64,000 bases of DNA from Eubacteriales bacterium. Its GTDB lineage: Bacteria; Bacillota; Clostridia; Oscillospirales; CAG-382. Of this stretch, positions 22,581 to 39,424 are shown one piece after another. The DNA lies in the NCBI GenBank assembly GCA_045540015.1, contig JAZQGP010000049.1:21901-85900 (forward strand). Direction: 5' to 3'. Position numbers and translations under genes: made by a program. Below the pieces are notes generated by a model, which was not told where the DNA came from, did no database searches, and worked only from the letters and a program-made list of their open reading frames with translations. Within the stretch, counting starts at the first letter, position 1, and the number at the start of each line of letters is the position of its first letter.

Positions 22581-22626
22581 AAAATCATTGAAAGTTTTTG
22601 CATGGCTTTTACTTTTACAAACCAAA

Positions 22627-31943: not shown

Positions 31944-34900
31944 TTAGTCTTCGAGGAAGGATTCCTGCTCGCCGGGATGAACAACAACCACGATATATTC
32001 AACCGCAGGAAGCTCATCTTCATCGTCAGCCTCTTCATATTCGATGTAGCACTTAGCAAATTCGCTGTACTTAGTAGTGTACTCATCATCGCCGTCTTCG
32101 ATAATCTTATCGTTGTAGCACTTGATATCCTTCTTATCAGCAGCAAGTTCTGCAACAGTAAGCTTAGATACCTCGGACTTGTAGATATCACCTGTCTTGT
32201 CGTACTTAACAAGAATAATGGGTGTATCATCTTCGAGCTGATATACTTCACTCTGGAAGTAGCTTGCATCTTCGCTGTTTACAGGAGCAATCTCAATTGT
32301 GTTATCCTTTTCCGCAACATAGGTAACAAATGCAAGATTCTTGTTTGTTGTGATGTCAATTACATCGTAAGAAGTCTTTTCTTCGTTAACCTTGCCGTCA
32401 GCTGTCATTTCAACAATCTGTCCGGAAACTGTAGCAAAAGGAACCTGAACGCTTGCTGCCTTTGCATAAGCTTTGGAGCCGGGCACATTTGAAAGCTTTT
32501 CGCCGGTAAGAGGATTGATTAAATCGTAGTAGTTGCGATATTTTTCTTCCTCGTCAACACCGGAGGTAACAGTTGTAAGAATTCTCCACTCATTTTCAAC
32601 TGTCTTGGAGTTGAACTCGAAGTCTTCTGCTTCTGCATACAGGAATACAAGGTTTGCACGGTTCTTAGAATCGGGATCCGCTTTGAGAATATACTGTACG
32701 TTTGTAAGCGGAGTGTCAGCATCGGTTGTTCCGGCAAAGGAATTGATATCAAATTCAAGATATTCGTACTTTTCCTTTGCGTCTTCAGCATCATCTACAC
32801 TTGTCTTTCTGTTACGGATTATAATTCTGGAATAATCCTGAAGTACAAGATAATCAATATACTGGATGGAATCAATACCGAGAAGTGAATAGCCTGCAGC
32901 GTCAACAAGCTGATAGCGGTTGCCTGCAACCTTGATCATACGTGCTTCATCGGAATAGTCAACATCTTCACCGAACATATCTGTGCTCTTGTCATCAACA
33001 AGAACTGTAGGATCGTTGTTAATACCGTTGTATTCGAGGTCTTCATCTCTTGAGTGAAGCAGAGAAGTGATTGTATACACGCCGTTCTTATCAACAGTGT
33101 ATGTACAAATCTTTCCGAGGTATGCGTAAACAGGGTCATCCTGATAGGTTTCCTGAACCGTTACACCAAAGTTGTACGTTTTGCCGTCTCTTGTAGGTGT
33201 AGGATACATATCCTCGATAGTTACAGGAACGTACTTGATAGCACCGTCTACCCAAGCTCTGATACGGAATGTTGTTTCTCCCGTATCAACATCAAATTCA
33301 CCTTCAAGGTAACCGCCGTTATTGTCTTCCGGACCAAGAGGAATTATAATGTTTTTGCTGTCATAAGCAACATTTCCGCCGTCAATAGGCTCGTAGAAGT
33401 AAATGTTGTTATAATTTTTGTTATAGGTATAAACGAGATACTCATTACCGAGTGCATCCGAAGAATGCAGGTGCGGCAAGTAGTTAGCGCTTGCTGAGCT
33501 GGATCTCAAAGCGTAACCGCCTTTTTCACCGGTGTCCTTATCAATGTCGCTGCCGGCAGCACCGCGGTAGCTCTTAACTGTCAAATACTGATAACCTGTT
33601 CTGTAGCTTGTTCCGTTAATCTTAGCAGTCATTGTAGATCTGCTGTTTGAAGAAACAGGACCCTGAGCCTTCTGAAGTACGTCAAATACATCAAGCTCAT
33701 TTGCATCGGGATTGAGGTATACAATTGCAAAATCACCTTCGTTGAACTTCTTACCGGAGAGATTTGCACCGTTGTAATAAATCGTAGGAACGTATTTAAT
33801 CGCATTTACATGCGCATCGTCGTTTGTAACATAAACAGGCGCGTTGTCATAATACTCTTCTATATCAGTAAAGGTATAGCCCTCATCGCCGTCCATCTTA
33901 CCGAACGTATAAGGTCTGTAGCGAACGTAGTCATATAAGGCGTCACCGTCTACATCATAGATGTCGAACTTATAAAAACCGCCGGTTGTAACCTGATGTA
34001 TGTGATCAAGAAGATATACATAGTTCATAGTGCCGTTTCCTACAAAGTCAAGCTCTACATAATAAGAATATGTGCCCTTTTCTTCGTCAACGGACTTGAT
34101 GTTAATGAACTTTGCGCACTTTTCATCGCGAATTTTCTTCTGTTCGGTTTCATTTGTTTCATTGCCGTAATCGGGCTTTGAATAAGAATACGGAGCATCA
34201 AAGAAGTAAATCTCTTTTCCGTTTATTGTAAGCTTAGGCAGGAGAAGAGGATGCTGTTTGCCGCTTGCACCATACCAGTACTCATAGTAATGATGATTTG
34301 CGTTCGCAGACATTCTCTTAACCTCTGCCTTTTCGGACGTCTGATGATCCATGTTGCTTTCAGCATAGAAAATGGTATCAATCTTATCGTCCTTATCTAC
34401 GGTGTAGAAGATATCAAATACACCCATGATGTAGTCATCAACATTTCCTGTAAGACCGAGCTTGTCGAAATCGTAGAAGAAGGACTGGATTTTTTCATTT
34501 GAATCTACTGCAACAAACTGCATCATGTTTCCTTCAAAATCATCAATAAGCGGCTTGTATTCAGTAGAGCTTTCGTCTTCATTAAAAGCAAACTTAGGAG
34601 TTGCACGAACGGTATAGCTGCCTTCGTTCACATCGTAAATGTACTCAGCAATGGTGGGATTGTATGTTCTCTTCTGCATTACGCCCTTACCGGTTGAGAG
34701 GAAACGCTCAACGTATTCAACCTCTTCATAAGCAGTTTCTCCAAAGAATGCGTTATAAAGAAGAATTGCTACAGCGCCTCTTGAAAGAGGAGTTTCATAG
34801 GAGAATGCTGACGGAATACCCTTATCGAGCGCCACGTCACTGCTCTCTGCAATATCTATGTAACCGTGAGGATAAACGATATCTCCTGTTTCATAGCCCA

Positions 34901-35327
34901 TTGCGCGAACAATCATTGTGTATGCATCCTGAAGGGTAATTGTACCGGTAGGATCAAAGACAGTTTCGCTTCTACCCTTAATAATGTTCATGGAGTTTGC
35001 CCATGAAATATATGCAAAATAGGTGCTGTCCTTAAGGTCCGTAAAGGTAGTGTGGTTTTCTCCGCCCTCCATGGAAGAACCTTTCTTCATAAGTCTGTAG
35101 ATAAACGCAGCCATCTGCTGACGGGTTACGTTTTCATTTGTTCCGAATGTTGTTTCGCTCGTACCCTTTGCAACATTGAGCTGGGAGAGCAAGTTAACCG
35201 CGTCTGACAGAGTCTTGTCGGATGCATTGACATCAGTGAACTTGGCAGCAGAAGCTCCAAAGCAGAGCATTGCAGCAAGAGTTACTGCGACAACCGCGGT
35301 CGTAAGAAACTTTTTAAAATTTCTCAT
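31944..35327 (-). CDS. Large SLH-domain cell-surface (S-layer-like) protein, paralog 1
   Basis: 1127 aa. It has the signal peptide MRNFKKFLTTAVVAVTLAAMLCFGASA and N-terminal SLH repeats (FTDVNASDKTLSDAVNLLSQLNVAKGTSETTFGTNENVTRQQMAAFIYRL; FTDLKDSTYFAYISWANSMNIIKGRS). The body is acidic and rich in Tyr and Asp. It is collinear with the 35533..38937 protein. Confidence 0.85.
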   Translation of the reverse strand: MRNFKKFLTTAVVAVTLAAMLCFGASAAKFTDVNASDKTLSDAVNLLSQLNVAKGTSETTFGTNENVTRQQMAAFIYRLMKKGSSMEGGENHTTFTDLKDSTYFAYISWANSMNIIKGRSETVFDPTGTITLQDAYTMIVRAMGYETGDIVYPHGYIDIAESSDVALDKGIPSAFSYETPLSRGAVAILLYNAFFGETAYEEVEYVERFLSTGKGVMQKRTYNPTIAEYIYDVNEGSYTVRATPKFAFNEDESSTEYKPLIDDFEGNMMQFVAVDSNEKIQSFFYDFDKLGLTGNVDDYIMGVFDIFYTVDKDDKIDTIFYAESNMDHQTSEKAEVKRMSANANHHYYEYWYGASGKQHPLLLPKLTINGKEIYFFDAPYSYSKPDYGNETNETEQKKIRDEKCAKFINIKSVDEEKGTYSYYVELDFVGNGTMNYVYLLDHIHQVTTGGFYKFDIYDVDGDALYDYVRYRPYTFGKMDGDEGYTFTDIEEYYDNAPVYVTNDDAHVNAIKYVPTIYYNGANLSGKKFNEGDFAIVYLNPDANELDVFDVLQKAQGPVSSNSRSTMTAKINGTSYRTGYQYLTVKSYRGAAGSDIDKDTGEKGGYALRSSSASANYLPHLHSSDALGNEYLVYTYNKNYNNIYFYEPIDGGNVAYDSKNIIIPLGPEDNNGGYLEGEFDVDTGETTFRIRAWVDGAIKYVPVTIEDMYPTPTRDGKTYNFGVTVQETYQDDPVYAYLGKICTYTVDKNGVYTITSLLHSRDEDLEYNGINNDPTVLVDDKSTDMFGEDVDYSDEARMIKVAGNRYQLVDAAGYSLLGIDSIQYIDYLVLQDYSRIIIRNRKTSVDDAEDAKEKYEYLEFDINSFAGTTDADTPLTNVQYILKADPDSKNRANLVFLYAEAEDFEFNSKTVENEWRILTTVTSGVDEEEKYRNYYDLINPLTGEKLSNVPGSKAYAKAASVQVPFATVSGQIVEMTADGKVNEEKTSYDVIDITTNKNLAFVTYVAEKDNTIEIAPVNSEDASYFQSEVYQLEDDTPIILVKYDKTGDIYKSEVSKLTVAELAADKKDIKCYNDKIIEDGDDEYTTKYSEFAKCYIEYEEADDEDELPAVEYIVVVVHPGEQESFLED

Positions 35328-35532: not shown

Positions 35533-38500
35533 TTACGCCTGAACACTGCATTCTTCGTGGAGCTTAGCTGTGTGAGTTGTAAGGTAGGTTTCTGCTTCAT
35601 TGGAGTGAACAAGTACAACAACCATAGTAACCTTGTTGAGTTCGCCATCTTCGAGGTTAGTCTCATTTTCAGTTACAACGTATGCCTTGATGTACTTAGC
35701 ATAGCCTGTCTTGTAGTTGCCCTTGTTGTCTTCAACCTTAGTGTTGTAGCACTTGTAATCGGTAGAAGTGGAAGCAAGGTCAGCTGTTGTGAGGAGGCTC
35801 ATTGTACCCCACTGAACAAAGGAATCCTTGTTGTTGTTGTCAGGATACTTGATCATAGATACTGCAGTATTGTTGTCAACCTGGTAGGATTCGATTGTGC
35901 CTTCTTCAACGTCATTCCAGCATCCGCCAACGGGAGCAAGCATGAGGATCTTGTCGGATTCGCTGTATTCAACGATCCAAGCTGTACCTGCCTTAGCATC
36001 GCCGCCGTCGATTTCTGCGAGGAAGTCTGTGGAGTTGATGTCGAGTGCGTCAAGAACAGCTTCATCTTCGTCAACCTTGCCGTCCTTGAGTTCAACTACA
36101 GAACCGACAGCTTTTGCAGCAGCGAGCTGTGTAGCCTTGCTTGCAGAGTCATTACCGGTAACTTCAGCCTTCTTACCTGTGAAAGGATCGTAAACTGTGT
36201 AGTAGTTTCTGTAGTAGTCGTTTTCGTCGATGTTTACATCAGAGTTAGCAATGATTCTGTAACCTGTAGAAGTGGAAGCACCCTTGAGGTCGAAGTCTTC
36301 TGCTTCTGCGTAAAGAACAACGAGGTTTTCTCTTGTTGTGCTGTCAGCATCGTTAGCAACGATGTAAGCTACATTGTAGAGTTCAACTTCAGAAGAAGTG
36401 TTGAATGTTGTTGCATCGTATTCGATGTATTCAACCTTTTCGTCATCAGTACCCTTATGCTTTGTGTTCTTGATGATGATCTTTGTGTAATCAGTGAAGT
36501 TGAATCTGTAACCGAGGTTAGCACCTTCAAGATCAAATCTTGTGCCAGCGAACTTGGTAAGGAATACAGGCCCTGCAACCTTGCCGAGGTACTGGAGATC
36601 ATCTTCTTCTGTGTCCTTAAGAACAGTGGCACCGAGGTTAGTCCATACGTCGTTTTCGTCATAACCCCAGTTGATACCAACGTACTTTTCATCACCGGTC
36701 TTATCTTCATCTTCTGCATTTTCAAGAGATGTAATTGTGTAAACACCGTCGGAATCTACTGTGTAAGTACAGAGCTGGTCAAGGTAATCAGCTGTTACGT
36801 CACCGTTAGCAACGATTACAGGATATACATCTTCAGTTTCAATAGTAACCCACTTGAGGTCGCCGTCAACCCATGCATAGATGCGTGTTACGTATTCGCC
36901 GAGATCAGTATCGAACTTTTCGTCAACTGTTCTGGGAGTAACGTTCTTCTTGCTGTATGTTGTAGGAATGATAAGATTATCAGTGAACTTGAGGTTAGCG
37001 GACTTAGCGCCTTCCTGATGGAGAACTACACCGTCGTAGATGTAGAGGTTGAGTTCTTCGTCGTTGATGTACTCAGCGTCGAGAAGAGCATCAAATGCAT
37101 CAAAGCCTTCATATGCTTCAACATCGTACTGTACATCATCAACATATACTTTCTCAACATCATCATAGTGTCTAGGTGCATAGTTAGCAACATACTTCCA
37201 TGCGCCGTCGAGAGCAACAGTTGTGTTGTCAGAAAGTGTGATTGTCTTTTCAGCCTTCTTGTAGGACTTGATTGTAGCGGTTGTAGGCTTAAGAACTGTA
37301 GCAACCTTAACTACATTGTTGTCCTGGCTGTAGTAACCGATTACATAATCTTCATTCTCGAACTTTTCGCCGAGGAGAGTTGCTTCGTTAGTGTAGATAA
37401 CAGGGATTTTGCCTGCTTCAATATCACTTGCGATTGTAGAGAAGTCGTTATCAACGAATTCCATCTCATCGTCAGTATCAACCTGGAAGAGAACGTAAGG
37501 CTTGTAGTCGATGTAGTCATAGAGACCGTCGCCGTCTACATCATAGATGTCAGCTTCGTAAAGACCACCGTAGTAAGCCTCTGTGTAGTCATCAACGAGC
37601 TTAGTTGCTTCTGCAACATAGAGACCGTCTGTTTCGTCTTCATCAAGTGCGGATTCAATTGCAATTTCTGCAACAGTTGCTTCGTAGATTCCCTTGTCTT
37701 CGTCAACGAGCTCGAAGCTAACAGTACCGATGTTTTCTTCATTTCTTTCGGTGTACATTGTTGCAGGATTGTTTGTGCTGGTGTAGCTGGGGTTAGCATA
37801 GGAATAAGGAGCGTTATAGAAGTAAATAACGTCTGTTCCTGTAGTTACCTTACCGGAGAGAATCTTAGCATCTGTTGTGTCAAAGTAGCTGTTTGCGTTG
37901 TTTGTAGTAACTGTAGCGAACTTGAGGTCGTTAACAGTCTTCTTTGTCATTGCGGAGTTAGCATAGAGAACCTTATCGATTTCGTAGTAATCTCCAGCCT
38001 TAGCCTTGTCGCCGTGAACAACATAGAGTTCAAAGTGTGCAAGGAAGAGGTCATCAAGCTTATCAGCATCTACGCCGAGGTCATCGGGAGTGAGGTAAAC
38101 CTGAACGGGAGACTTGTCGATGTTTTCATCTTCTTCTACTGCGAGAAGAACTGCATCGTAGCCGAGATCGTTGGTTGCTTCAGTATCTGTTGTCTGGTAG
38201 TGAGGAGTAGCTACTACCTGATATTCAACAGTCTTAACACCGAAAACGTCTTCGCAAAGAACAGGATATGTTTCTTCTTCAACGAGGTATGCGCCGTTTT
38301 CTGTTACGATTTCCTTGTAGTCGATTGTAGCAACGCCCATTTTTGCAAAGAATGCATTGTAAAGAAGGATAGCCATATCGCCTCTTGTAAGAGCGTCTGT
38401 GTAATCAACTGTGGAAGCGAGACCTTCAGCGAGATCTACGTCTTCAGCTTCAGCTACTTCAATGTAACCGAAGGGATACTGGAGCTTTTCACCGTCTGCT

Positions 38501-38937
38501 TCGTACTTGAGTGCACGAACGATCATTGTGTAAGCTTCCTGGAGTGTGATTGCACCCTTAGGATCGAAAGCTGTTGCGCTTCTACCTGTAACGATGCCCT
38601 GCTGAGCTGCCCAGCCGATAGCATAGTTGTAAGTAGGATCTGTGAGGTCCTTGAAGTTAGTAACGTTTCCGCCGTTTGCGGGAGCGTCCTTACCGCCCTT
38701 CATCAATCTGTAGATGAAGAGAGCGAACTGCTGGCGAGTAACGAGTTCGTCTGTTCCGAACTTTGTTTCGGAAACACCCTTCGCTACGCCCATGTAGTTG
38801 AGAAGACTAACAGCGTCTGCAAGATATTCGTTGTCAGCGCTTACGTCTTCGAATGCAGCAGATGTTGTGAAGCTCATTGCGCTTACAACCATCATCACTG
38901 CGAGAACGAGTGTAAGAAATTTCTTGAAATTTCTCAT
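35533..38937 (-). CDS. Large SLH-domain cell-surface (S-layer-like) protein, paralog 2
   Basis: The track ORF extends to 39159, but that extension lies in repeat DNA. I prefer ATG 38937, with AGGAGG at 38953-38948. It has the signal peptide MRNFKKFLTLVLAVMMVVSAMSFTTSA and SLH repeats (FEDVSADNEYLADAVSLLNYMGVAKGVSETKFGTDELVTRQQFALFIYRL). The length is 1134 aa. The codon-aligned antisense frame is open over essentially the whole gene. Confidence 0.85.
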   Translation of the reverse strand: MRNFKKFLTLVLAVMMVVSAMSFTTSAAFEDVSADNEYLADAVSLLNYMGVAKGVSETKFGTDELVTRQQFALFIYRLMKGGKDAPANGGNVTNFKDLTDPTYNYAIGWAAQQGIVTGRSATAFDPKGAITLQEAYTMIVRALKYEADGEKLQYPFGYIEVAEAEDVDLAEGLASTVDYTDALTRGDMAILLYNAFFAKMGVATIDYKEIVTENGAYLVEEETYPVLCEDVFGVKTVEYQVVATPHYQTTDTEATNDLGYDAVLLAVEEDENIDKSPVQVYLTPDDLGVDADKLDDLFLAHFELYVVHGDKAKAGDYYEIDKVLYANSAMTKKTVNDLKFATVTTNNANSYFDTTDAKILSGKVTTGTDVIYFYNAPYSYANPSYTSTNNPATMYTERNEENIGTVSFELVDEDKGIYEATVAEIAIESALDEDETDGLYVAEATKLVDDYTEAYYGGLYEADIYDVDGDGLYDYIDYKPYVLFQVDTDDEMEFVDNDFSTIASDIEAGKIPVIYTNEATLLGEKFENEDYVIGYYSQDNNVVKVATVLKPTTATIKSYKKAEKTITLSDNTTVALDGAWKYVANYAPRHYDDVEKVYVDDVQYDVEAYEGFDAFDALLDAEYINDEELNLYIYDGVVLHQEGAKSANLKFTDNLIIPTTYSKKNVTPRTVDEKFDTDLGEYVTRIYAWVDGDLKWVTIETEDVYPVIVANGDVTADYLDQLCTYTVDSDGVYTITSLENAEDEDKTGDEKYVGINWGYDENDVWTNLGATVLKDTEEDDLQYLGKVAGPVFLTKFAGTRFDLEGANLGYRFNFTDYTKIIIKNTKHKGTDDEKVEYIEYDATTFNTSSEVELYNVAYIVANDADSTTRENLVVLYAEAEDFDLKGASTSTGYRIIANSDVNIDENDYYRNYYTVYDPFTGKKAEVTGNDSASKATQLAAAKAVGSVVELKDGKVDEDEAVLDALDINSTDFLAEIDGGDAKAGTAWIVEYSESDKILMLAPVGGCWNDVEEGTIESYQVDNNTAVSMIKYPDNNNKDSFVQWGTMSLLTTADLASTSTDYKCYNTKVEDNKGNYKTGYAKYIKAYVVTENETNLEDGELNKVTMVVVLVHSNEAETYLTTHTAKLHEECSVQA

Positions 38938-39000
38938 GGTGGAATTCCTCCTGTTTAAAATATTTTTGTATGACAAAACACGAGGTTTTGTTACGCTATT

Positions 39001-39065
39001 ATAATAATCCAAGTCAATATTTTTTGCAATACCTTTTTTTAAACTGTAACACAACTGTAACACAA
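39001..39065 (-). promoter_or_regulatory. Promoter of SLH paralog 2 with upstream 11-bp GTTACAG repeats
   Basis: On the reverse strand: TTGCAA (39029-39024), 17 nt, TATTAT (39006-39001). Two perfect 11-bp direct repeats (plus-strand CTGTAACACAA at 39044-39054 and 39055-39065) lie just upstream. The layout matches paralog 1. Confidence 0.45.
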
Positions 39066-39230
39066 GCTTTTTGAAAAAAGCTTGGCAAAAACTTTTGAAC
39101 GGTGAAATTGAAGTCTGAACAACTTCAATTTCACATACCGCCTCATTGCCGCTTTGCATAAAGTTTAAACTACATCAATTTCACATATTGCCTCATTGCT
39201 GCTTTGCACAAGGTTCAGGCAACCTGTAAT
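39064..39230 (+). repeat. Bipartite hairpin-repeat element plus two ~40-bp direct sub-repeats
   Basis: AAGCTTTTT-GA-AAAAAGCTT (39064-39083), the linker GGCAAAAACTTTTGAACG, then the 13-bp-stem hairpin GTGAAATTGAAGT-CTGAACA-ACTTCAATTTCAC (39102-39134). After that, CAATTTCACATAYYGCCTCATTGCYGCTTTGCA occurs twice. Confidence 0.7.
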
Positions 39231-39424
39231 TCTATTATACACGCTTATTCCTTGTTAGCAATATATCAGCTGAAACTGTAATATTACTGTAACATACTCT
39301 TTCGATTATGCGCTTATATAATATAGGAAGAAAACCGAAATTTTTAATCTCAATTTTGCAGTTTATCCGGCTTTTAAATAAAAAATCGCGCCAACATAAA
39401 TGTCAGCGCAAATTTCATTTTAAA

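Follow-up and report, generated by a model that had tools for sequence, protein, structure and literature searches.

A putative clade-restricted family of modular, hairpin-bearing interspersed repeats in a Ructibacterium-like lineage of the Oscillospiraceae

REP sequences have a GTAG foot and GC-rich, bulged stems, they assemble into BIMEs as alternating inverted clusters, and their hairpin DNA has been proposed to be an enzyme substrate; studies by Nunvar in 2010 and Ton-Hoang in 2012 reportedly deal with REP/BIME elements and the RAYT (Y1 HUH) transposases. Rolling-circle origins (e.g., those of f1 gpII, geminiviruses and pT181) place repeats or iterons beside a hairpin, the invariant loop of which holds the nick site. 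Among the repeats of pneumococci, BOX, RUP and SPRITE have been judged parasitic (PMC3049150); BOX is laid out as boxA-(boxB)n-boxC, and SPRITE resembles Rho-independent terminators (Croucher et al. 2011, PMC3049150; reviewed in PMC10969869). Here, we describe a repeat found in a 64-kb stretch of contig JAZQGP010000049.1 of an Eubacteriales bacterium (assembly GCA_045540015.1), hereafter termed the window. Its constant part is an A/T palindrome (P1) followed by a linker (together, P1-linker), to which a 33-nucleotide (nt) hairpin (hp2) or another module is joined. We lean towards regarding these elements as an undescribed family of mosaic interspersed repeats, modular in build and restricted to one Ructibacterium-like lineage of the Oscillospiraceae. 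Because close relatives gain, lose, duplicate and swap the modules, the family is most likely a DNA repeat that is selfish or recombining, and not a single dedicated regulatory RNA. In behaviour, the pneumococcal BOX/SPRITE repeats and REP/BIME would be its closest analogues.

A pattern scan of the window for GTGAAAT-N6-YTRAACA-N6-ATTTCAC with up to 3 mismatches returned exactly three hp2 sites (Table 1), compared with 0.02 in shuffled sequence, and an unfiltered covariance-model search, trained on 14 copies, detected no further full hp2 in the 64 kb. The hp2 consensus is GTRAAAT-N6-YTRAACA-N6-ATTTYAC. P1 and its linker (linker consensus GCAAARAACTTTTGAACG) form a 38-nt direct-repeat family of five copies, starting at 15673, 15842, 16011, 39063 and 57059, with looser copies at 8736 and 8876. 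They precede hp2 in two of its three copies, the third being preceded by a degenerate P1 only, and all full copies yield two-hairpin folds with z-scores of -4.7 to -7.7 relative to shuffles. The original prediction for this window was accurate in the coordinates and architecture that it gave for 39064-39134 and 10692-10765. Its third full copy (10618-10680) does contain hp2, though P1 is merely degenerate there. Pairing is likewise kept in the inner 6-bp stems that it described as differing, but these are not three unrelated stems: what varies among the three window copies is two inner-stem positions and one outer pair (G-C to A-T in the copy at 10692). What had been taken for an expanded form at 15673-16180 is really an array of three 169-bp units that only begin with P1-linker, and the supposed partial forms at 8736-8790 and 57061-57096 have P1-linker alone in common. 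Overall, the modules found joined to the constant P1-linker are hp2, a terminator hairpin with a YTRAACA loop, GC-rich hairpins, and units of 169 bp and 232 bp.

Comparison of syntenic loci in relatives (HrcA identity of 96% for L026, 89% for L027, and 87% for L029-L031; 99% IF3 identity for L037) revealed extensive turnover. At the 3' end of dnaJ, the element is absent from L029 and L030, in which DnaJ ends in ...KETLKNL* and an ordinary terminator follows, and present in the window, L026 and L027, in which DnaJ ends in ...KDLLS* and the final codons and the stop come from the P1 arm. An essential chaperone gene has thus had its final codons replaced by the insertion. The filled sites also differ from one another. 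More specifically, L026 carries a 13-bp direct duplication (CCTACTTTCTTGA), which is the sole flanking duplication seen and is absent from the dnaJ site of the window and of L027; L027 carries another P1 allele; and the order of the hp2 variants in both L026 and L027 is the reverse of that in the window. Upstream of the hrcA promoter, P1-linker is present in every relative and the adjoining module varies. It is hp2 in L026; in L029 and L030 it is an hp2 whose inner stem and loop are both new; in the window it consists of three units of 169 bp, and in L027 of two units of 232 bp, with equal unit ends and a different interior. (In L026, a (GAGGAAT)5 microsatellite at 9761-9795 abuts this hp2; it does not occur in the other genomes.) The YpsA-Mur spacer is likewise variable: L026 and L027 have P1-linker with a tail of the type found at 57 kb in the window (57k-type), L030 and L031 have an hp2-type element, and the window retains only a remnant (22585-22611). 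The linker may be a pre-existing target site, but the 'empty' YpsA-Mur site of the window looks equally like a deletion remnant. Units of the type following asnS (asnS-type) number one in L026, two in the window and at least four in L029. At the locus near 39 kb (39k), as judged by eye from printed sequences, the flanks of the window and of L037 are almost identical, including two predicted promoters; within the element, ~15 of 75 nt differ, including a compensatory A-T to T-A pair, and L037 has another P1 allele. In L037, ~290 nt of additional sequence accompany the element, and the 50-nt tandem arrangement of 39111-39210 is present there likewise.

This syntenic pattern bears the signature of a repeat that is inserted, deleted, amplified and converted, not that of a vertically conserved regulatory RNA. 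As strains and species diverge, the modules are gained and lost, amplified in tandem and exchanged, all at the DNA level. They settle intergenically, in either orientation, and often right at stop codons. Given the filled, empty and swapped sites, the presence of both orientations, the tandem amplification and the copies in a prophage, the comparative data fit a REP-like mobile element, which the original prediction had offered as an alternative, better than a single structured small RNA.

Pairing statistics were obtained for 15 copies and 13 pairs of hp2 and for 12 alleles and 10 pairs of P1. In hp2, 96.4% of the cells were Watson-Crick paired, compared with 28-49% when the 3' partner was slid by one to three columns; double compensatory changes were present at 8 of 13 pairs, one-sided changes at none, and the observed score was reached by no shuffle. 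Likewise, 86% of P1 cells were paired (56-67% when slid), with double changes at 7 of 10 pairs and no one-sided change. The pairing-preserving covariation first noticed in the window is therefore much stronger once the copies from related genomes are added. Its original interpretation as selection on a fold fares less well, in that not a single one-sided G·U state occurs in the 310 scored stem cells of hp2 and P1, the rare imperfect cells being A·C, A·A or G·A. An attempt to choose the strand by wobble asymmetry was abandoned (4 A·C versus 1 G·T mismatches in the P1-to-hp2 orientation, not significant). DNA palindromes can keep complementarity through arm-to-arm templated repair, which would give an equal pattern, so that covariation alone is no proof of an RNA fold.

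Two further regularities emerged. The YTRAACA loop is not confined to hp2, since it also caps the asnS-type terminator hairpins of the window and their orthologues (ATCCCGACTAC-TTGAACA-GCAGTCGGGAT, then TGCTTTT), a hairpin in L012 (a Clostridia genome from roe-deer caecum), and a fourth stem class in L037; YTRAACA hairpins with a stem of at least 8 bp numbered 21, compared with none in 20 shuffles of the window. In addition, the linker tracks P1. P1 can be written as ...C T^n C TT / AAG A^n G... and the linker as C A^n G A(A) C, n being 2, 3, 4, 5, 6 or 7 depending on the allele, and when linkers were permuted among P1 alleles, the observed match was reached in 1 of 5000 permutations. At the orthologous asnS site, n equals 7, 4 and 6 in three lineages, all three segments shifting together. 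The 3' arm of P1 and the linker make up a homopurine mirror repeat, and the allele of L041 (A4-G-A1) favours a mirror over a direct repeat. Such a geometry may permit a triplex, or an alternative pairing of the P1 5' arm with the linker.

The family is real, undescribed in the libraries searched, and restricted to a narrow clade. The nearest genome matches to the window were Clostridia metagenome-assembled genomes, one of them labelled Ructibacterium (Oscillospiraceae). Exact look-ups of the DnaJ and L20 proteins encoded in the window returned no record, so its source genome is absent from the collection searched. A search with the hp2 pattern across one genome per species (185,579 species) returned 12 loci and placed hp2 in just 3 of these genomes; among the loci, only L001, a contig of a Ructibacterium sp. 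genome bin, and L012 were true relatives. In L012, hp2 has a wholly different inner stem and lies inside a 23-bp GC stem, which a T run follows. The same pattern gave 13 loci in JGI metagenome contigs, all of them chance matches with non-complementary arms. Viral contigs yielded no match to two patterns, and blastn found none among GenBank phages and plasmids. Consistent with the original failure to name a family, the proposed comparison with Rfam gave no match at gathering thresholds over the whole window and, with E up to 10 at the two main loci, only chance microRNA-like hairpin matches far under the cut-offs. CodY, Rex, parS, dif and attC sites were considered and dismissed informally on spacing or sequence. 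The ~230 kb of related loci examined contained 14 distinct hp2 copies. As a separate observation on the 4.5-kb L012 contig, positions 1-140 and 4330-4468 are identical inverted copies over at least 90 nt, each with an hp2-bearing terminator, and bracket a LacI/MFS/GH39 gene set; the ends reflect an assembly break caused by the repeat or else belong to an invertible or composite segment.

Copies have also entered a phage. In L001, two hp2-element copies flank, in direct orientation, a gene (2287-3054) for a 255-aa protein with matches to Pfam REP_ORF2-G2P (E = 1e-15) and to PHROG 3584, 'replication initiation protein' (E = 2e-67). Other genes of this phage-like region code for a VRR-NUC nuclease, a D12 methyltransferase and a DUF3846 protein. 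This phage was found in three further samples (L042-L044), with identical copies down to the stem mismatches. The tailed-phage contigs that carry Rep homologues of 38-62% identity (L032-L036; L035 has genes for a terminase and a portal protein) contain neither P1 nor hp2. Upstream of rep, they share a conserved motif, TAGGCTTGTATG...TTAACGGAC, along with purine/pyrimidine hairpins. In its simple form, the idea that the phage Rep is the cognate enzyme was therefore rejected, the homologous phages having their own upstream motif and hairpins and not the element. Most simply, host repeats would have inserted into a single phage, an event that is evidence of mobility in its own right; a functional link with the phage HUH enzyme is conceivable but unsupported. 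The upstream motif, TA(A)GGCTTGTATG..TATATTAAC..AACGGAC, lies at 3150-3330 (minus strand) in L001, 1990-2130 in L035 and 4830-4970 in L036, and precedes hairpins rich in purines and pyrimidines, for example GTCAGGGGGAAAGG...CCTTTCCCCCTGAC; the region probably serves the phage itself as an origin or promoter.

Relative to the flanking transcription units, the copies 3' of dnaJ and asnS, those on either side of the phage rep and that of L012 are in sense orientation, whereas those at 39k and upstream of hrcA are antisense. The asnS-type units and L012 are transcribed in the P1-to-hairpin direction, with a U run after the hairpin. The 57k-type element is transcribed in the opposite direction, as part of a histidine-kinase 3' untranslated region (UTR) with a terminator at 56979-56999 (minus strand). 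As the transcribed direction differs among copies, no single RNA strand accounts for all of them. Nor is hp2 a generic terminator, a candidate role that we rejected because a T run follows just 5 of 14 copies. The features of a terminator are complete in the asnS-type hairpins at 8836-8864 and 8966-8994 (then TGCTTTTT) and in L012, weak in both dnaJ hp2 copies (ATTTT), and missing from 39102-39134, the L001 copies and the copies upstream of hrcA. Independent small-RNA genes were likewise rejected, as there is no consistent promoter before P1 and the sole strong, conserved promoter predicted (at 39k) reads the element in reverse.

How, then, does the family compare with the systems described above? 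Like BOX and SPRITE, it comprises small, structured, modular intergenic repeats (here, P1-linker-(hp2)1-2 or other tails) that are found in a narrow clade, are clustered or nested, are presumably co-transcribed with neighbouring genes, and undergo slow turnover by insertion and deletion, with no dedicated transposase identified for either side; the asnS-type and L012 hairpins mirror the terminator resemblance of SPRITE. A variable number of modules, a narrow clade, an intergenic position and insertion-deletion polymorphism among strains are all found here, which places the family in the BOX/SPRITE class in a functional sense only. It differs in its host, an Oscillospiraceae lineage rather than Streptococcus, and in having a loop common to stems of unrelated sequence and a linker whose changes follow those of the palindrome, features undescribed for BOX/SPRITE in PMC3049150 and PMC10969869. 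With REP/BIME, our repeats share extragenic 20-40-nt hairpins, covarying stems, a position at gene ends and clustering. In contrast to REP, the hp2 foot is GTGA or GTAA in all copies and not GT[AG]G, tandem copies are direct instead of alternately inverted, stems are A/T-rich and perfectly paired, and no RAYT was found among the 26 window open reading frames scanned. The only HUH gene flanked by copies encodes the gpII-type Rep of the phage, and these copies are direct rather than inverted. PATEs and MITEs resemble the family in being non-autonomous, hairpin-rich, intergenic and small. Unlike MITEs, however, the modules here are self-palindromic, with no terminal inverted repeats spanning the element and no consistent target-site duplication, and unlike the ends of PATEs derived from IS200/IS605, P1 (2-5-nt apex) and hp2 (13-bp stem, 7-nt loop) share no sequence; nor is there a tnpA/tnpB relative nearby. 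The suggestion of a Y1-type enzyme (IS200/IS605 or RAYT) in the original prediction was accordingly not borne out, P1 and hp2 being unrelated hairpins and no such enzyme occurring among the scanned reading frames.

Under the reading that we prefer, a selfish or recombining DNA repeat, inserted modules would be co-transcribed with their neighbours, and their hairpins would serve incidentally as terminators or as 3' UTR or leader structures. Dispersal would take place at the DNA level, either through hairpin or cruciform DNA recognised by a trans-acting enzyme absent from the window or, alternatively, through recombination at the P1-linker junction, and the conserved loop and the P1-linker co-variation would reflect the requirements of the dispersal factor or structure. 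Several points weigh against this reading. Simple selfish spread explains neither the conservation of the heptaloop nor the P1-linker co-variation, and both regularities suggest a specific recognising factor or structure. The T^n/A^n/A^n runs of P1-linker change in concert at orthologous sites of lineages with 87-96% HrcA identity, and a P1-linker retained in this manner looks like functional constraint and not like junk. The heptaloop is common to unrelated stems, and two of these stem classes are genuine terminators with a single, invariable orientation, a pattern that would suit an RNA-level ligand. Moreover, no transposase, Y1 or HUH domain was found among the 26 reading frames, the ends of the element, its target site and a target-site duplication are not definable from the sites compared, and the ~230 kb of related sequence was selected for synteny with element-bearing loci. 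A possible, though less probable, account is that of an RNA-level cis element, in which P1-linker and the YTRAACA hairpin form a 3' UTR or leader module that controls termination, processing or mRNA stability, the loop (with a YUNR-like U-turn start) being read by an RNA-binding protein or a complementary RNA loop, and the spread reflecting recruitment of a useful module instead of selfish mobility. The canonical intrinsic terminators of asnS-type units and L012, formed in the P1-to-hairpin direction, agree with it, as do the location of P1 at or on the stop codons of asnS (in all four lineages), dnaJ and the phage rep, the retention of the loop while stems are replaced, the concerted shift of P1 and linker runs at asnS, and the conserved, predicted promoter that reads through the 39k copy. 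It is countered by copies that lie in both orientations to the flanking units and so share no common RNA strand, by the scarcity of T runs after hp2, by stems devoid of G·U pairs, by the lack of an Rfam match, and by a 39k element far more divergent than its flanks between near-identical strains.

The remaining explanations place recognition at the DNA level. An origin-like substrate of an HUH endonuclease, in which P1 and linker would be an inverted-plus-direct 'iteron' set, the heptaloop would hold the nick site, and the chromosomal copies would be derivatives akin to REP that a phage-type or RAYT-type enzyme moves in trans, seems to us improbable. The architecture fits, with an inverted and a direct short repeat beside a hairpin of covarying stem and invariant loop, as at rolling-circle origins; strictly Watson-Crick stems suit a DNA substrate; and the only enzyme adjoining copies, which is also the sole HUH protein to do so, is the gpII-type (REP_ORF2-G2P) rolling-circle Rep of one phage, seen in four samples. 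The phages with homologous Reps, however, keep their own upstream motif beside rep and not P1 or hp2, so that the element looks like an insertion. Unlike rolling-circle origins, the element has dozens of chromosomal copies, several P1 alleles coexist in one genome, which is unexpected for sequence-specific iterons, and the nick site in the loop is only putative; in addition, P1 and hp2 are dissimilar, unlike the left and right ends of IS200/IS605, and the scanned reading frames of the window include no HUH gene. We give similarly little credence to a REP-like two-part device that would combine these features, in which P1-linker would act as a Py-Pu-Pu mirror unit (forming a triplex or an alternative pairing) kept by three-way run-length covariation, the heptaloop would be the recognition or nick site, the enzyme could be an HUH protein of the phage gpII/Rep type rather than a Y1 RAYT, and the chromosomal copies would be origin mimics spread by a phage or host enzyme. 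Least credible, and in our estimation very unlikely, is a protein-binding or structural DNA site, with P1-linker as a palindromic operator or as a cruciform- or triplex-prone insulator between transcription units and hp2 as an unrelated neighbour. Every relative examined does keep P1-linker ahead of the hrcA and SLH promoters, ~10-35 nt from the -35 element, and its homopurine mirror repeat has triplex (H-DNA) potential. Yet the half-sites covary instead of being conserved, at least six alleles coexist, unlike operator sites, and many copies sit between convergent gene ends, far from promoters.

If the elements are indeed clade-restricted interspersed repeats, they constitute a new family for a poorly studied or uncultured gut Oscillospiraceae clade. 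Its annotation would then account for contig breaks in metagenome-assembled genomes, for a spuriously extended open reading frame and for the altered DnaJ C-terminus, and the family could serve as a strain-typing marker and would bear on 3'-end formation in these genomes. The heptaloop on unrelated stems and the co-varying purine run set it beyond the routine, in that a recognising factor or structure should be findable experimentally, and the copies flanking the phage rolling-circle rep offer a concrete and cheap biochemical test.

Table 1. Repeat modules and associated features in the 64-kb window
Feature	Position	Strand	Support or remark
P1, A/T palindrome CAAGCTTTTT-GA-AAAAAGCTTG	39063-39084	+	Direct-repeat family; covariation over 12 alleles
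Linker GCAAAAACTTTTGAACG; purine run copies the P1 stem run	39085-39101	+	
hp2, 13-bp stem, heptaloop CTGAACA	39102-39134	+	Covariance model 76.3 bits, E = 9e-13
Two 50-nt tandem units, 84% identity; unit 2 has the loop and 3' arm of hp2 only (39163-39184)	39111-39210	+	
Predicted sigma-70 promoter P_x, TTGCTA-16-TATAAT	39234-39261	-	10/12 consensus positions; kept in L037
P1 CCTACTTTCTT-GA-AAGAAAGTAGG; 5' arm is the last four dnaJ codons, apex is the TGA stop	10742-10765	-	
Linker CAAAGAACTTTTGAACG	10725-10741	-	
hp2 GTAAAAT...ATTTTAC, loop TTAAACA, then ATTTT	10692-10724	-	78.6 bits
Degenerate linker, then second hp2 (10618-10650, loop CTAAACA), then ATTTT	10618-10691	-	79.3 bits
Canonical intrinsic terminator closing the dnaJ 3' region	10568-10587	-	
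Three 169-bp tandem units; P1-linker heads at 15673-15710, 15842-15879 and 16011-16048, each then ~131 nt of other hairpins	15672-16180	+	
asnS-type unit 1, directly 3' of the asnS stop: P1 (8736-8768), linker CAAAAAAAGAAC, small hairpin, terminator hairpin	8736-8871	+	
Terminator hairpin of unit 1, ATCCCGACTAC-TTGAACA-GCAGTCGGGAT, then T run	8836-8864	+	
asnS-type unit 2, tandem duplicate; terminator hairpin 8966-8994	8876-9001	+	
P1 GCTTTTT-AAC-AAAAAGC and linker GCAAAAACTTTAGATG; 10 nt from the opposite-strand histidine-kinase stop	57059-57096	+	
57k-type tail: GC-rich hairpins and terminator following P1, histidine-kinase 3' UTR	56979-57058	-	
Remnant TAAAAGCCATGCAAAAACTTTCAATGA: half of the P1 3' arm plus linker; site filled in relatives	22585-22611	-	

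The 10.7k copies lie 3' of dnaJ, the last gene of an hrcA-grpE-dnaK-dnaJ operon (10753-15542, minus strand; Pfam matches of the neighbouring reading frames). Ahead of hrcA is a perfect CIRCE operator, TTAGCACTC-N9-GAGTGCTAA (15572-15598, minus strand), which is kept in all relatives. On the other side of the 169-bp array, between the MGS terminator and these units, we noted a structured 'head' element (16165-16405, minus strand, in the window; 9290-9470 in L027; 10425-10640 in L029). RNAalifold on the three sequences predicted 46 pairs; compensatory changes affect 11 of these, and the hrcA-sense strand shows several G·U pairs. Rfam contains no match, and at two different loci the 'head' precedes arrays of units ending in linker and P1. 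On this folding prediction, it is a candidate novel non-coding RNA.

The 39k copy occupies the spacer between rplT and an SLH gene and is antisense to both. Two paralogous genes with SLH domains (Pfam) lie at 31944-35327 and 35533-38937 on the minus strand, with infC-rpmI-rplT just upstream of the second; the window also encodes a cohesin-dockerin protein. A 1133-aa plus-strand open reading frame (35557-38958) is a shadow of the second SLH gene, and the 1208-aa minus-strand frame listed for this gene overextends upstream over the repeat element, the true start being ~38937 as judged from the position of the SLH domain, a ribosome-binding site and an ATG. The predicted P_x would read the 39k element in reverse, toward the SLH gene. 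In the same spacer, GTTACAGT-N5-TTACAGTTT occurs twice (39273-39293 and 39041-39061, minus strand), each time just upstream of a sigma-70-like promoter (39261-39234 and 39029-39001, respectively), and both copies and both promoters are kept in L037. From its sequence, this pair looks like a duplicated regulator site plus promoter before the SLH gene, with the repeat sandwiched in between.

Elsewhere in the window, ARAGORN found no tRNA and no tmRNA. Within 60001-62000, G+C falls to 0.35 with a positive GC skew, and four plus-strand open reading frames in 59717-62455 are without a Pfam match; the 60001-62000 segment may be foreign DNA.

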